Notes under the pieces: model-generated
The model's input: the letters and a program-made list of their open reading frames with translations, nothing else
Databases searched by the model: none
What the model was told of the DNA's origin: nothing
DNA from: Archaeoglobus fulgidus DSM 4304
Lineage (GTDB): Archaea; Halobacteriota; Archaeoglobi; Archaeoglobales; Archaeoglobaceae
DNA length: 32,000 bases
Reading direction: 5' to 3'
NCBI RefSeq assembly: GCF_000008665.1
Contig: NC_000917.1
Coordinates: 2,130,001-2,162,000, forward strand
Translations under genes and position numbers: made by a program
Part shown: positions 1,852-8,457 of the stretch, piece after piece
How positions within the stretch are numbered: position 1 is the stretch's first letter
Layout: the number at the start of each line of letters is the position of its first letter

Positions 1852-3637
1852 ACAACATTTCTCGTAGCAGTTTAGACTCCAATCTGAAAAGCCACGAAAG
1901 GTTTAACTGGAACAATGCTAAGAAAATGACCATGCCAGGACTTGAGTCCTTGCTGAGGGAGGAGCGAGTTTTCTACCCTCCCAAAGAGCTCGCCGAAAAC
2001 TCGAACATCAAGCAGTTTATGGACAAGCACGGCATAAAGGATGAGGATGAGCTGAGAAAAAGGGCTTTGGAGAACCCGGAGTGGTTCTGGAGTGAGATGG
2101 CGAAGGAAGTTGGAATCGAGTGGTTTTCCGAGCCCGAAAAAGTTCTTGAGTGGGACCCTCCCTACGCCAAGTGGTTTGTGGGGGCGATGTACAACATAGT
2201 CCACGATGCCCTTGACAAGCAGGCTGAGCTGAGGAAGAACAAGGTTGCTTACATATGGGAGGGAGAGAACGGGGATGTGAGGAAGATAACCTACGGCGAG
2301 CTTTACAGGGAGGTTAACAAGCTCGCAAACGCCCTCAAGGAGTTAGGAGTTAAGAAGGGCGACAGGGTTGCGATTTACCTCCCCATGATTCCTGAACTGC
2401 CAATAGCGATGCTTGCATGTGCGAAAATCGGGGCGATTCACACCGACGTTTTCTCCGGCTTCAGCCCTATGGCGCTGAGAGATAGAATCAACGATGCTGA
2501 AGCGAAGCTTCTGATTACAGCCGACGGTTTTTACCGCAGGGGAAGTGTTATTCACCTCAAGGAGGATGCGGACAAGGCTTTGGAGGATGCGCCCAGTGTG
2601 GAGAAGGTCATCGTTGCGAGGAGAATTGGCTTGGACGTGCCGATGAAGGAGGGCAGGGACTACTGGTGGGATGATGTAACAAGAAATCAGCCAAAGGAGT
2701 GCGAGACGGAGGTAATGGATGCGAACGACATTCTGTTCATCCTCTACACCTCTGGCACAACTGGCAAGCCCAAAGGTGTGATGCACGCCCACGGCGGCTA
2801 TGCTGTTGGAACGGCAGCAACCCTTAAGTTCGTTTTGGATTTGAAGGAAAACGACGTTTACTGGTGCACGGCGGATATAGGATGGATAACGGGGACAGCT
2901 ACATAGTCTACGCCCCCCTGATTCTCGGTGCGACATCGGTGATTTACTGCGGCGTCCCTGACTATCCGAAGCCGGACAGGTGGTGGGAAATCATCGAGAA
3001 GTACGGCGTCACGGTATTCTACACTGCACCAACAGCCATAAGGATGTTCATGCGCCTCGGCGAGGAGTGGGTGGAGAAGCACGATTTAAGCAGCCTGCGT
3101 ATCCTCGGAAGTGTGGGAGAGCCAATAAACCCTGAAGCTTGGTACTGGTACTACAAGCACATCGGCAAGGAGAGATGCCCGATAATGGACACGTGGTGGC
3201 AGACCGAGACGGGTCACTTCATTGTCACCCCACTCCCTGTTACTCCTCTGAAGCCCGGCTCAGCGACAAAGCCGTTTCCAGGAATAGAAGCGGACGTTTT
3301 CGATGATAGCGGAAACTCCCTCTACGGCAAGAACGTTGGAGGCTACCTTGTCATAAAGAAGCCGTGGCCGGGGATGCTGCGGGGTGTGTGGAGAAACCCG
3401 GAGAGGTACTTCAAGACTTACTGGGAGAAGTTCAAGGATGTTTACCTTACTGGCGATGCTGCAAGGGTTGATGAGGACGGCTACTTCTGGATTCAGGGAA
3501 GGCTGGATGATGTTTTGAATGTGGCAGGGCACAGAATAGGCAACAGCGAGGTTGAGTCTGCCTTAGTCAGTCATCCTGCCGTCAGCGAGGCTGCTGTTGT
3601 TGGAAAGCCGCATGAGGTTAAGGGAGAGGCTATAGTT

Positions 3638-4884
3638 TAGGGCCCTTACCAAATCACATCTCCGCCAACCTCTGCAACACCTTCTTCTCCCTAAATCCCA
3701 GAGCAACAACCACGCCAACCAAAAGGACATTCAGAGTTGCAAATTTAAACACAGATCTCCTCGTATAACGATGCAATCTCCTCAAACCAAATGATTTAGC
3801 GAGTTTAAACACATCCTCTATGACAGATCTAACCCCCTTAAAAGTCTCCCATCTTTGCAACAAATTCAACAGCTTAGCCTTTAAAGCCTTAAACCTCCTC
3901 TTCTCCTCATCCAAATTCTTTGAGCTGAAAATACTCAGAGGATAGCTGAGCATTCCACTCAATCTCTGAATATTGAAGTTGGAACGAGGGAAAATCAAGG
4001 GAACAACCCTGTACTCGTTTATCCCCGATAAATAATTCCTGTAGGCGTAAAATCCCTTATCCATAATCACAGTATCTCCCATCCTTGCAATTCTCCTTCT
4101 CCTGAGTTCATTCATAATTTGATCGAAGATCTTAGCCTCATGCCTGTTTGCAGGATGCAGCAAAAAGAGCAAAGGTTTGAGAGAGGGGGTATTCTAAAAC
4201 CAGAGTCAGCTTAAATCCGACAAACATTCCTTTCGCGGAGTATCCCCACCTGTAATCCTTTCCATGCAAATCTTTCTGCCTAACAGGTTTCCTGAACCAG
4301 TTTATGTCTACACTAATGTCGGTACAATCTACGATTAGCTTAGTGTTTCTCGCCCTCCTCTTGGTTATTGAGTTCAGAACTCTCAAAATCATCGCTATAA
4401 AATTGCTTAATCCGAATCTCGAAAGAAAGGAGTATATGTAGGAAGTTTCTGGTACCTCATCTTCCCTTATTCCAAGAAACTCCCTTAAATCCTGTCTTTG
4501 CCTTAATTCTTCAACAACGTGAGAGATTTTGGTAGAGAAGAACATTGAGGTGAGAACGATTTTCATACAACTGATTGCAGTTTTTATTGGCGAAGTGAAT
4601 TTTGCTATGATCTTCCTCGTCTTTCTCATTTCGAAAATCTTAAGTATTTTCCCAAGTAATTGCCATCTGTAGTCGTTTGGGTCGACTGCAAGCGGGATCT
4701 GCATTGTTTCACCCAGAGGAGGCTTACGCCTCCTCCTACATAACTTTTGCGGTTTTTGATTGGTTTATTTCGGCTGGAGAAGGATTACTGGATGTCTCTT
4801 TTGATGGGAGGGTTGGATTGTTTGTAGTTTGGTGATTAAGGGAGTTAGAGGGGAGATTAGGATTAAGCTTGAGTAAGCACCTTA
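3638..4884 (-). mobile_element. Insertion sequence (IS4/IS5-superfamily DDE type), 1247 bp, inserted in acs
   Basis: A 7-bp direct repeat TATAGTT flanks it at 3631-3637 and 4885-4891. The terminal inverted repeats are imperfect (left TAGGGCCCTTAC..., right end reverse complement TAAGGTGCTTAC..., 9/12 matching, then degenerate). A transposase gene fills the interior on the minus strand. Confidence 0.85.
3654..4704 (-). CDS. DDE transposase (IS4/IS5 superfamily), split into two overlapping frames
   Basis: ORFs 4138-4704 and 3654-4172 overlap. The upstream part carries DCTD. The downstream part carries MDKGFY and RSVIEDVFKLAK (a Y/R-E-K type C-terminal motif). Deleting one C from the C5 run (G5 at 4185-4189 on the + strand) gives a continuous ...LEYPSLKPLLFLLHPANRHE..., about 350 aa. 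Confidence 0.8.
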
Positions 4885-5156
4885 TATAGTTGCCTTCGTC
4901 ATCCTCAGGAAGGGATACCAGCCGTCGGACGAGCTGAAGGAGGAGCTGAGAGAGCATGTGGCGAAAATGCTCGGAAAAATTGCTCGTCCGGATGAGATAT
5001 ACTTCGTGCCGGATCTGCCAAAAACGAGGAGCGGTAAGATCATGAGGAGACTCGTTAAGGCCAAGCTCACGAAAGCAAAGATAGGCGACACTTCGACGCT
5101 TATGAATCCAGAGGCTCTGGTTTACGTTGAGCAGGCCATTGAGGGGAGCAAGTAAG

Positions 5157-5188: not shown

Positions 5189-5202
5189 TTAGGTTAACCG
5201 AA
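5189..5202. promoter_or_regulatory. DtxR/IdeR-like operator candidate upstream of the DUF5320-like genes
   Basis: TTAGGTTAACCGAA matches the feoA-proximal palindrome at 8384-8397 at 13 of 14 positions. It abuts a T/A-rich TATA-like stretch (5205-5213), about 45 nt upstream of ATG 5251. Confidence 0.45.
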
Positions 5203-5250
5203 AATTTTTTAAGTCAACTTTGTGGCTACTAATTTTTGGAGGTGAGAAAA

Positions 5251-5451
5251 ATGCCTGGCGGAGACAGAACCGGACCCTGGGGTCAGGGGCCGAGAACTGG
5301 CAGAAGAGCAGGATTCTGCTCCGGCTACAGAATGCCGGGATTCATGAACCGCTCCGTCTGGCCACCTTTCGGTGGAAGATGGTTCAGATGGTTCGGCAGG
5401 AGATTCTGGGGCAGGAGAGCCGGTAGAGCTGGTAGAGGGAGGTGGTGGTGA
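5251..5451 (+). CDS. DUF5320-like small protein, N-terminal part (Gly/Arg/Trp-rich)
   Basis: GGAGGTGA at 5238-5245 is followed by ATG 5251. The ORF reads [31 protein letters not shown]..., which fits the N-terminal motif remembered for DUF5320. It ends ...GRGRWW at TGA 5449-5451. Confidence 0.65.
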
Positions 5452-5711
5452 TGCCCTGGTGGATGCCCGGCTGGGGTGGCAGAGGCTGGAGGTGGTGGTA
5501 TAGAGCCACTGGACTACCGGGATGGATGAGATGCAGATGGTGGGGATACCGGGACCACCCTTGGGACTACCCACCATATCCACCCTATCCACCAGCTCTC
5601 CGTCCTGAGGATGAGCTTGAAATGCTCGAAGCTATGAAGGAGGACCTTGAGGCAGAGCTTGAGGACATCAAAAAGAGGATTGAAGAGTTGAAGAGGGAGC
5701 TTGGGAAGTAA
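5451..5711 (+). CDS. DUF5320-like small protein, C-terminal part (Trp-rich segment, PPY repeats, coiled coil)
   Basis: ATG 5451 overlaps the preceding stop (TGATG), and GGAGGTG lies at 5438-5444. The ORF reads [18 protein letters not shown]...PPYPPYPP followed by [34 protein letters not shown]. The ORF track starts this frame at GTG 5442. Confidence 0.6.
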
Positions 5712-5712
5712 T

Positions 5713-6015
5713 TTATTTTCTTGCTTTTTTAACCAAGTACGGAACTGTAACTAATCCGAAGATTCCGTAACTGAAGCTTCCTGAGGCCATATAAACAAGA
5801 ATCATCAGAACCGAGAAGGCTGCAGCAAGCAGAGAGGCAACGAAAAGATACGAGTCCCTTCTCACAACGACACCCTTTGCAAAGGTTGCAGTAATCGTTC
5901 CGAGCACAAAGGCGTTCATCAGCGTCCCTTCCCCTCCAAAGATATTCAGGGCTGAAAGAACCTCAAGGATTGTCAGGAGGGAGAAAAAGGCAGTAAAGGC
6001 AAAGGCTACAACCAA
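5713..6015 (-). CDS. Small polytopic membrane protein of unknown function, downstream of feoB
   Basis: ORF 5713-6090 overlaps feoB by 85 nt. A TTG at 6015-6013, just upstream of the feoB stop, gives a 100-aa protein with 3-4 hydrophobic helices and a KKARK tail. The start choice is uncertain. Confidence 0.45.
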   Translation of the reverse strand: MVVAFAFTAFFSLLTILEVLSALNIFGGEGTLMNAFVLGTITATFAKGVVVRRDSYLFVASLLAAAFSVLMILVYMASGSFSYGIFGLVTVPYLVKKARK

Positions 6016-7713: not shown

Positions 7714-8160
7714 TCACCTCTGCTTGCACGGATGCCTTCCGGTCCTGCAGAACTCCCTAAAATGCTCCAACCATCTCGGATTTACAGCCGGGCTGGATTC
7801 AACAAATCTAACAAAGTTTCTGAGCTGCCTGAGAGTTTCGGGATGCAGGACGTGCTCAATGGTGCACGCATCCCTTTCGGCCACATCTTCTGGAACCCCT
7901 ATCGCCTTGAGGAACTTGATTACAACATTTCTTTTCTCCCTCAGCTTCATCGCTTCCCTGACACCTTTTTCCGTCAGCTTTACGTGAGACCTTTTTTTGT
8001 ATTCCACATATCCCATTCTGGAGAGCTTTTCGAGCATCTCGGAAACGGTTGCGGGCTTGACATTCAGCACTTCGGAGAGCTCCATCACCTTTGCATAACC
8101 CTTCTCTTTGCTCAGACTGTAGATAGCTTCGAGATAGTCCTCAGCCCTGCTCCCCAACAT
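7714..8160 (-). CDS. DtxR/MntR/IdeR-family metal-dependent transcriptional repressor
   Basis: 148 aa. The N-terminal wHTH reads EDYLEAIYSLSKEKGYAKVMELSEVLNVKPATVSEMLEKLSRMGYV. A dimerisation/metal-binding helix region follows (ACTIEHVLHPET). Confidence 0.9.
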   Translation of the reverse strand: MLGSRAEDYLEAIYSLSKEKGYAKVMELSEVLNVKPATVSEMLEKLSRMGYVEYKKRSHVKLTEKGVREAMKLREKRNVVIKFLKAIGVPEDVAERDACTIEHVLHPETLRQLRNFVRFVESSPAVNPRWLEHFREFCRTGRHPCKQR

Positions 8161-8383: not shown

Positions 8384-8397
8384 TTAGGTTAACCTAA
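8384..8397. promoter_or_regulatory. Perfect 14-bp palindrome TTAGGTTAACCTAA; operator candidate of the feoA-dtxR-feoB operon
   Basis: It lies 7 nt upstream of the feoA ATG (8377) and just downstream of a minus-strand TATA-like TTTAATAA (8401-8408). Its two heptamers equal the outer heptamers of the DtxR/IdeR consensus. A degenerate copy, TTCGGTTGTCCTAA, lies at 8412-8425. Confidence 0.55.
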
Positions 8398-8457
8398 ATG
8401 TTATTAAAGCTTTCGGTTGTCCTAAATTAAAGCTCCGGAATGGCAAAAATTGTAATG

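Follow-up and report, generated by a model that had tools for sequence, protein, structure and literature searches.

The closest described systems to the gene pair considered here, AF_2391/AF_2392 of the archaeon Archaeoglobus fulgidus DSM 4304, concern translational coupling, iron-sulfur (Fe-S) storage and the ORP complex of Desulfovibrio. The pair lies in a stretch of 32,000 nucleotides (nt) of contig NC_000917.1 (positions 2,130,001 to 2,162,000), which is referred to below as the window and in whose own numbering positions are given. Of 14 overlapping gene pairs of the TGATG type that were tested, 13 were strictly coupled, through termination-reinitiation (Huber et al. 2019, PMC6728339). 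IssA of Pyrococcus furiosus (PF2025) consists of a NifX-like domain and a 70-residue tail that is first Pro-rich and then cationic, aromatic and Gly-rich; the tail has conserved W, G and R residues and the sole Cys of the protein, is predicted to be disordered and has been proposed to wrap anionic thioferrate (PMC5524996). In Methanococcus voltae, the expression of DtxR, FeoB and two IssA homologues increases jointly (PMC8516115). The ORP complex includes the MinD-like Orp3 and Orp4, the NifX-like Orp8, the Mrp protein Orp9 and a small subunit without an assigned function, Orp5 (DVU2105), which is encoded after two MinD-like genes (PMC6345978).

AF_2391 and AF_2392 are two open reading frames (ORFs), here called ORF1 and ORF2, that carry the two halves of DUF5320, a family that is widespread in anaerobic bacteria and archaea. 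The pair resembles the coupled overlapping pairs (PMC6728339) in having the TGATG junction and a Shine-Dalgarno (SD) motif inside the upstream gene, an arrangement that is kept in orthologues; it differs from them in that its products are halves of what is elsewhere one protein, and in that the coupling is read here from sequence. Domain families are known to split into adjacent genes, and both genes had been annotated before. What is new is the demonstration that this split is old and under selection, a module map of the family, and a specific hypothesis, linking an iron regulon and Fe-S handling, for a large DUF.

Two adjacent genes carry complementary halves of DUF5320

The ORF1 product is identical to AAB91281.1/WP_010879878.1 and the ORF2 product to AAB91280.1/WP_010879879.1, which are separate database entries, each already labelled 'DUF5320 domain-containing protein'. 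ORF2 is read in the -1 frame relative to ORF1 and ends at a TAA (5709-5711). The 66 residues of ORF1 include 16 G, 15 R, 7 W, 6 F and one Cys, giving an isoelectric point (pI) of 12.0 and a net charge of about +13.5. Ten W residues fall among residues 1-40 of ORF2, whose first 50 residues have a pI of 9.9, the same 10 W and one Cys. A 12-mer, GGAGGTGGTGGT, is found at 5438-5449 in ORF1 and again at 5488-5499 in ORF2, and is read as R-W-W in each.

An earlier note, made from the letters of the window alone, had associated the N-terminal signature of ORF1 with DUF5320, had read the two ORFs as a split DUF5320-like gene and had proposed that the profile hidden Markov model be run against each ORF and their conceptual fusion. 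Against the Pfam profile of the family (PF17253; length 99, gathering cut-off 27 bits), ORF1 scored 50.3 bits over profile positions 1-56, ORF2 scored 38.5 bits over positions 36-99, and the ORF1-ORF2 fusion scored 82.5 bits over positions 1-99. Each half by itself exceeds the cut-off, over complementary ranges of the profile, and the assignment is borne out for ORF1 as well as for ORF2; the coordinates and composition counts of the note also held when the sequence was read again. An NCBIfam search of the pair gave no family match, and a PDB search gave nothing relevant (best E about 0.9, to galactocerebrosidase). In the literature searched, DUF5320 is named in two papers, neither of them functional, and there was no mention of PF17253 or of AF_2391/AF_2392.

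The split is conserved and both halves are under selection

Sequences identical to the ORF1 and ORF2 products were located on 22-23 contigs from various projects (among them several independent read-set assemblies, a Joint Genome Institute metagenome and an NCBI assembly), and the 40-mer at the junction was the same as that of the window in all six assemblies examined. Orthologous loci, designated below by L numbers, were drawn from the contigs of the closest homologues and from one genome per species, together with A. neptunius (L050) and A. veneficus (L049). The junction was tabulated for 14 orthologous loci; with A. neptunius and A. veneficus added, the sample comprises at least 16 diverged Archaeoglobus/Archaeoglobaceae loci.

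The nearest homologues of the conceptual fusion were C-terminal halves beginning MPWW.PGWG, not full-length proteins. In all of the loci sampled, an N-module ORF of 59-70 residues, ending ...RW(W) or ...GRR, is followed by a separate ORF that opens with a Trp block, and no uninterrupted DUF5320 gene was found among the Archaeoglobaceae orthologous loci retrieved. The earlier note had suggested examining whether the ORF1 stop is conserved in Archaeoglobales orthologues; its position is kept in these loci, and the identity of the codon varies (TGA in eight, TAA in three and TAG in three of the 14 tabulated). The restart overlaps the stop, as TGATG or TAATG, in nine of the 14. It follows the stop directly and in frame in L013 (TAG-ATG, offset 0), and a spacer of 1-5 nt separates the two codons in L001, L004, L006, L014, L016 and L050. 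ORF2 of L004 has a GTG start and lies in the +1 frame; in most loci, the second half is offset by -1 from the first. Such variation in stop codon, spacing and frame is, in our analysis, explained solely by selection for two ORFs.

Of the 14 tabulated loci, 11 have the sequence GGAGGT at the junction, 5-8 nt 5' of the start, as do A. neptunius and A. veneficus. This sequence is retained in L006 and in A. neptunius although ORF1 of these loci ends ...GRR, not RWW. The GGAGGTGA motif is conserved in L001, L005 and L014, and is found as GAGGTGA in L012 and L050.

The ratio of non-synonymous to synonymous change (dN/dS) was determined by the Nei-Gojobori method for the window pair against eight orthologous loci. 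The values were 0.05-0.15 for ORF1 and 0.03-0.10 for ORF2; synonymous differences were near saturation (proportion of synonymous differences, pS, 0.4-0.8), and non-synonymous differences were few. Low dN/dS with near-saturated synonymous sites indicates that both halves are functional coding sequences. Among the possibilities raised in the earlier note, a functional two-subunit form is therefore the one supported by the conserved stop and restart and by the selection on both halves. We are highly confident that AF_2391/AF_2392 is a genuine conserved two-gene operon, in which the halves of one protein family are encoded as two separate peptides. Judged from the sequences compared, an ancestral ORF was probably broken in an ancestor of the Archaeoglobaceae, and not recently.

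Coupled translation of two peptides is what we infer to be the best reading of the junction. One short transcript would yield both halves as separate peptides: a ribosome that ends ORF1 at UGA would restart on the overlapping AUG, aided by the GGAGGUG in the last Arg-Trp codons, and reinitiation would keep the two products in step. The locus would then represent a clean natural case of gene fission, held by termination-reinitiation, in which the SD motif is written in the Arg-Trp codons of the upstream peptide. The features of the pair and of the promoters discussed below are collected in Table 1.

Table 1. Positions in the window of the gene pair, its translation signals and the promoter elements.
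Feature	Position	Strand	Remarks
ORF1 = AF_2391, 66 residues	5251..5451	+	DUF5320 N-module (..PGFMNR), then Arg/Trp/Phe/Gly tail ending RWW
ORF2 = AF_2392, 86 residues	5451..5711	+	Trp/Arg/Gly block, Pro/Tyr linker, acidic amphipathic helix
SD motif of ORF1, GGAGGTGA	5238..5245	+	Read from the sequence; 5 nt 5' of ATG 5251
Internal SD motif of ORF2, GGAGGTG	5438..5444	+	Within the final G-R-W codons of ORF1; 6 nt 5' of ATG 5451
Stop/start overlap TGATG	5449..5453	+	TGA (5449-5451) closes ORF1, ATG 5451 opens ORF2
Segment for the predicted 34-residue helix/coiled coil	5604..5705	+	ORF2 residues 52-85; AlphaFold2 and L/I/M heptad spacing
Operator-like box TTAGGTTAACCGAA (TTAGG-N4-CCKAA)	5189..5202	+	Immediately 5' of the BRE/TATA-like element, which it overlaps
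BRE/TATA-like element CCGAAAATTTTTTAAG	5198..5213	+	About 38 nt 5' of the ORF1 ATG; conserved ACCGAAA(A/G)ATT.A block
feoA promoter, two boxes	8384..8425	-	TTAGGTTAACCTAA at 8384-8397; TTAGGACAACCGAA at 8412-8425, then TATA-like AGCTTTAATAA
DtxR-family iron-dependent repressor gene	7714..8160	-	Within feoA-dtxR-feoB; candidate binder of the boxes

Module map of the DUF5320 family

The fusion was aligned with 86 full-length relatives (87 sequences). One block of invariant residues lies entirely in ORF1 (M1, P2, G4, D5, T7, G8, P9, G11, G13, T16, G17, R18, G21, C23, G25 and G30); a second lies in ORF2 and, in fusion numbering, consists of G76, R77, G78, R80, A85, T86, G87 and G90, seen as the invariant GRGWR and ATG..G, plus the coiled coil. 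The invariant blocks are joined by a variable Gly/Arg linker, and the cut (fusion residue 66|67) lies within it. In the coiled-coil region, LEAELEDI and RIEE are invariant in a seven-sequence alignment. AlphaFold2, supplied with the 87-sequence alignment, predicted a helix at residues 118-151 of the fusion (ORF2 residues 52-85), with mean scores of the predicted local distance difference test (pLDDT) of 87-98 for 10-residue blocks over 111-150, and predicted residues 1-110 to be disordered; the helix agrees with the C-terminal coiled coil that had been proposed from the letters.

The pair has the N-terminal motif, the GRGWRxWYxATGLPGW block and the coiled coil of the single-polypeptide DUF5320 proteins (about 115-140 residues, from anaerobic bacteria and archaea), in the same order and, in sister species, with the same company of NifX-like, MinD-Fer4 and Mrp genes. 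Unlike these proteins, AF_2391/2392 carry the modules on two polypeptides, with a conserved stop, SD motif and restart between them, and their linker halves are unusually rich in Trp and Phe.

Members of the family had been described in the earlier note as normally one polypeptide. This is indeed the commonest architecture, but it is not the only one. One family search gave more than 1,200 database clusters, and most of the members listed were single ORFs of 115-140 residues. At least 44 of the best 150 ORF2-matching representatives of 50%-identity clusters had the Trp block and coiled coil without the N-module. Proteins of 60-79 residues with the N-module alone were found in Bacteroidota (Thermophagus, Anaerophaga, Dysgonomonadaceae) and in Desulfonatronovibrio (P0169-P0172); free-standing N-modules are therefore not limited to archaea. 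In L014 (5406-6034), three consecutive genes encode the N-module, a Trp block only, and a Trp block with coiled coil, ahead of NifX-like genes. The Thermoplasmata locus L020 (1290-2672) has the order DUF134, Trp block with coiled coil, N-module with Trp block, NifX-like, that is, a reversed order of the modules. The Trp block and coiled coil stand alone ahead of feoA-dtxR-feoB in L009. AF_2391/2392 add to this modular view of DUF5320, and the expression of its modules as separate coupled peptides across an archaeal family would show experimenters where the functional boundaries lie.

The second gene of A. veneficus is arranged differently. After the N-module gene of this locus (L049, 7001-7412), the Trp block (from ATG 7186) is read in one frame and the coiled coil (7230/7242-7412) in another, so that the sequence suggests either a third peptide produced by a further split or decay.

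A promoter box common to the pair and to feoA

The motif TTAGG-N4-CCKAA occurs at three places in the window, with 4 matches over both strands as compared with 0.09 expected by chance, and each of the three places is the promoter of the DUF5320 pair or of feoA. The feoA-proximal box is a perfect palindrome of 14 base pairs (bp), 7 nt from the feoA ATG, and the two feoA boxes are 28 nt apart; the distal one is followed by its TATA-like sequence in the same box-plus-TATA layout as at the promoter of the pair. We take the element at 5198-5213 to be a transcription factor B recognition element (BRE) and TATA box from the general archaeal promoter consensus. The sequence TTTAGG-N4-CCGAAA(A/G)ATT.A is found 5' of ORF1 in 16 of 16 aligned split loci, and the box is also present 5' of ORF1 in A. 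neptunius and, as a TTCGG variant, in A. veneficus. Two boxes precede feoA in L005, L006, L009 and L050, and the second NifX-like gene of the adjacent cluster is preceded by a box in L006 and L050.

The candidate binder is encoded nearby. The product of the gene at 7714-8160 matched the Pfam families Fe_dep_repress (E 8e-27) and Fe_dep_repr_C (E 1e-16). The arms of the box, TTAGGTT and AACCTAA, are the outer bases of the DtxR/IdeR operator (TAGGTTAG(G/C)CTAACCTAA), and the box stands at the promoter of an operon for Fe(II) uptake, one of whose genes codes for a DtxR-family protein. It differs in being a 14-bp palindrome (TTAGG-N4-CCTAA), whereas the DtxR motif has 19 bp, and the arm at the DUF5320 promoter reads CCGAA and overlaps the BRE. 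One possible hypothesis is that the DtxR-family repressor would bind TTAGG-N4-CCKAA over the BRE/TATA element when Fe(II) is plentiful, and that AF_2391/2392 would be repressed in this way together with the Fe(II) uptake genes. The motif matches incline us slightly toward placing AF_2391/2392 in the same iron-responsive regulon as feoA-dtxR-feoB, the operator role of the box being predicted. The feoA boxes would then be a candidate operator of an archaeal DtxR-family repressor that is encoded in the operon itself.

A second inverted repeat, TGAATACATATTCA, lies within the 25 nt before the ORF1 start in L008, L011, L013, L015, L016 and L049, with one arm base different in L008 and L015; it is absent from the window. 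Those 25 nt contain no SD motif in these loci, save a weak GGTGAT in L049. The repeat could be a second operator or part of a leaderless-type start region.

Gene company and a proposed role in Fe-S handling

The neighbours in the window are, in order, a gene for a cation-efflux (CDF) transporter with a NifX-like domain, a disrupted acetyl-CoA synthetase gene and the pair; then, on the opposite strand, a small membrane ORF, feoB, dtxR and feoA; and cdhAB. In L006 (Archaeoglobus sp. UBA230) and L050 (A. neptunius), the feo/cdh neighbourhood is as in the window, and the pair stands directly after two NifX-like genes, two genes for MinD/CbiA ATPases with ferredoxin domains and one Mrp/ParA gene. 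The same gene types (NifX-like, MinD/CbiA with Fer4, Mrp/ParA) lie downstream of the pair in L014, and NifX/MinD-Fer4/Mrp clusters of this type also hold full-length DUF5320 genes in other archaea. A NifX-DUF5320 fusion is encoded within the cluster of L037, and related fusions are encoded in L027 and L032.

These clusters resemble the Desulfovibrio ORP complex in holding NifX-like, two MinD with Fer4, and Mrp/ParA proteins, and the Fe-S storage systems of the IssA type have this gene set as well. Unlike the Desulfovibrio operons, which are under sigma-54 control, the archaeal promoters carry the DtxR-like box; moreover, the ORP-like cluster lies outside the window, and Orp5 is a putative counterpart of DUF5320 from its gene context. 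A homology search seeded with a DUF5320 protein of Desulfonatronovibrio returned no Desulfovibrio vulgaris protein. With IssA (PMC5524996), the likeness is that of the tail composition to ORF1 and to the first 50 residues of ORF2, with one Cys each, and NifX-like domains fused to DUF5320-type tails do exist. The archaeal pair differs from IssA in lacking the NifX-like domain, so that it would need to act in trans, and in adding the invariant N-terminal motif and the coiled coil, neither of which has been described for IssA.

One could envision the following mechanism. ORF1 would provide a very basic peptide, predicted to be disordered, with the invariant N-terminal motif and a single Cys; ORF2 would supply the Trp/Arg/Gly block together with an acidic helix, some 34 residues long, which would form a coiled coil and oligomerise the pair. 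The peptides would work with NifX-like, MinD-ferredoxin and Mrp proteins of the ORP/IssA type and, as cationic, aromatic and flexible partners, would hold or hand over anionic Fe-S species, in a manner akin to that proposed for the Trp/Gly/Arg tail of IssA. This Fe-S-binding mechanism, drawn by analogy, is put forward tentatively, as possible rather than probable. A broader and more speculative proposal, which we consider unlikely as it stands, is that DUF5320 is the free-standing counterpart of the IssA tail, a widespread class of disordered Trp/Arg/Gly peptides, clustered by coiled coils, that would bind or nucleate anionic Fe-S species for NifX-like/MinD-ferredoxin machinery of the ORP type in anaerobes, and that in the Archaeoglobaceae would take the form of two stoichiometrically coupled peptides, the N-module with its Cys and the Trp block with coiled coil, controlled by a DtxR-type protein jointly with Fe(II) uptake. 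If true, it would give a function to DUF5320 and to the small subunit of the ORP complex.

Taken as a whole, the explanation that combines a coupled pair, an iron regulon and an Fe-S accessory role is the best that we can offer, and we hold it with moderate confidence. The box common to Fe(II) uptake and to genes in Fe-S company turns it into a concrete hypothesis, that of an iron-regulated accessory of Fe-S storage or trafficking, which can be put to experiment in A. fulgidus DSM 4304 because this is a cultured type strain.

Several observations weigh against parts of this explanation. At the junction, GGAGGTG follows almost automatically from Arg-Trp codons, and a third copy of it, at 5488, has no start codon after it. 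At the promoter, the arm sequence of DtxR is present in the box and the 19-bp spacing is not, and the CCGAAA half may be the BRE of the promoter, in which case its conservation would partly reflect promoter function rather than an operator. As for the gene company, the ORP-like cluster is absent from the 32-kilobase window, where only the CDF-NifX gene (697-1851) is nearby, and in L001, L004 and A. veneficus the pair is flanked by unrelated genes. Finally, AlphaFold2 gave no confident structure beyond the C-terminal helix (pLDDT below 60 for the remainder), and ORF1, ORF2 and the fusion had no match to IPR003731/Nitro_FeMo-Co, the resemblance to the IssA tail being one of composition only.

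Two other functions could be assigned to the coupled peptides. In the first, they would serve the MinD/ParA-type Fe-S ATPases of an ORP-like complex as adaptors or activators: the invariant N-terminal peptide with its Arg would promote ATP hydrolysis, and would itself be dimerised through the coiled coil, as in small partners of ParA/MinD, perhaps in the cell-division role that has been proposed for the Desulfovibrio complex. The pair or its full-length relatives do adjoin two MinD/CbiA+Fer4 genes and an Mrp/ParA gene in L006, L014, L025, L033, L037 and L050, the small Orp5 of the ORP complex is likewise encoded after two MinD-like genes (PMC6345978), and the N-module has the invariant R18 at a flexible, Gly-rich, N-terminal position. 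However, the pair often occurs without adjacent ATPase genes, as in the window, L001, L004 and L049, and the link to an iron regulon favours metal handling over division. We regard this adaptor function as improbable.

The second is that the peptides bind nucleic acid, their Arg/Gly/aromatic stretches serving as RGG boxes on RNA or G-rich DNA. The pI of ORF1 would suit such a role, as would the gene that precedes the pair in L020, a DUF134 gene, which we take to encode a predicted DNA-binding protein. A survey of G-quadruplex-binding motifs in archaea also flagged DUF5320 and DUF134 proteins of Methanosarcina mazei (PMC7565180). Against it, the genes that recur as neighbours are of the Fe-S, NifX-like, MinD-type and Feo kinds rather than for nucleic-acid enzymes; the promoter box is common to the pair and feoA; and the Pfam search of ORF1, ORF2 and the fusion found no known nucleic-acid-binding domain. 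We think that nucleic-acid binding is quite unlikely.

Alternative readings of the junction

One scenario for the junction other than two coupled ORFs is programmed recoding, by -1 frameshifting or stop read-through, that would produce a full-length fusion beside the short ORF1 product, as the earlier note had allowed. In its favour, most loci have ORF2 in the -1 frame, the two ORFs of L013 share a frame with TAG alone between them, and the sequence in itself is compatible with a low level of fusion product. A single recoding event is difficult to reconcile, however, with an offset that differs among orthologues (-1, +1 in L004, 0 in L013), with the spacers of 1-5 nt in six loci, with the further W-block gene about 180 nt downstream in L014, and with the reverse gene order of the modules in L020. 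The junction has no slippery heptamer of the X XXY YYZ type, re-pairing from UGG to GUG would be poor, and the fold of the junction RNA is no more stable than that of shuffled sequences (z = 0.45). The conserved feature is, rather, a start codon with an SD motif 5' of it. Recoding is thus very unlikely.

Another scenario is a recent inactivating frameshift, which would make AF_2391/2392 the remains of a decaying pseudogene. That most of the listed family members are single ORFs could be taken in this sense, as could the extra frame change between Trp block and coiled coil in the second gene of A. veneficus, which could be decay. A decaying gene would be expected to show a neutral pattern (dN/dS near 1) or scattered stops in orthologues, and neither was observed; dN/dS was 0.03-0.15 across both halves with synonymous sites near saturation, conservation extends to the promoter box, the two SD motifs and the restart codon, and the coiled-coil core is invariant across the clade. 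We consider decay to be extremely unlikely.

The remaining possibility, that an indel from sequencing or assembly has produced the split in this record and that the true gene is one DUF5320 ORF, as the G-rich, error-prone repeat GGTGGTGGTG at the junction and the broken-looking acetyl-CoA synthetase gene nearby (frame change near 2864-2906) might suggest, can for practical purposes be dismissed, because the junction is identical across independent assemblies (six, of differing read sets and projects), the stop is at the same place in sixteen diverged loci, and no intact Archaeoglobaceae orthologue was retrieved.

Neighbouring genes and minor observations

A search of Rfam for known RNA elements gave only a sub-threshold match to CRISPR-DR45, inside the coiled-coil coding region, which was taken as chance.

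The product of the CDF transporter gene (697-1851, + strand), which lies 3.4 kilobases upstream of the pair, has a NifX-like (Nitro_FeMo-Co) domain at its C-terminus. This unusual joining of a metal exporter to a cluster-binding domain is conserved in L005 and L007. The A. neptunius locus has, at 4181-4432 in its ORP-like cluster, a small gene of the Pfam family 'AF_2379'. Because this family name occurs in the A. neptunius cluster, we place the ORP-like cluster of A. fulgidus itself upstream of the window; the name suggests a position about a dozen genes before AF_2391, just beyond the window's edge, and the cluster seems to have been parted from the pair by the CDF-NifX and acetyl-CoA synthetase genes.

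The acetyl-CoA synthetase gene (1926-5155, + strand) is broken twice, by the frame change mentioned above and by an insertion sequence at about 3641-4957, whose DDE transposase (minus strand) is itself in two ORFs (3654-4172 and 4138-4704). The synthetase is intact, with 656 residues, in other assemblies of this species (L039), and one assembly has an intact transposase of 349 residues (L040).

On the minus strand, an ORF of about 100 residues at 5713-6015, with the character of a membrane protein, overlaps the end of feoB by 10 nt (FeoB stop at 6006-6008). It resembles a frameshifted FeoB tail, yet it is a separate ORF after feoB in L001, L005, L006, L009 and L050, and its product is probably a small FeoB-associated membrane protein.

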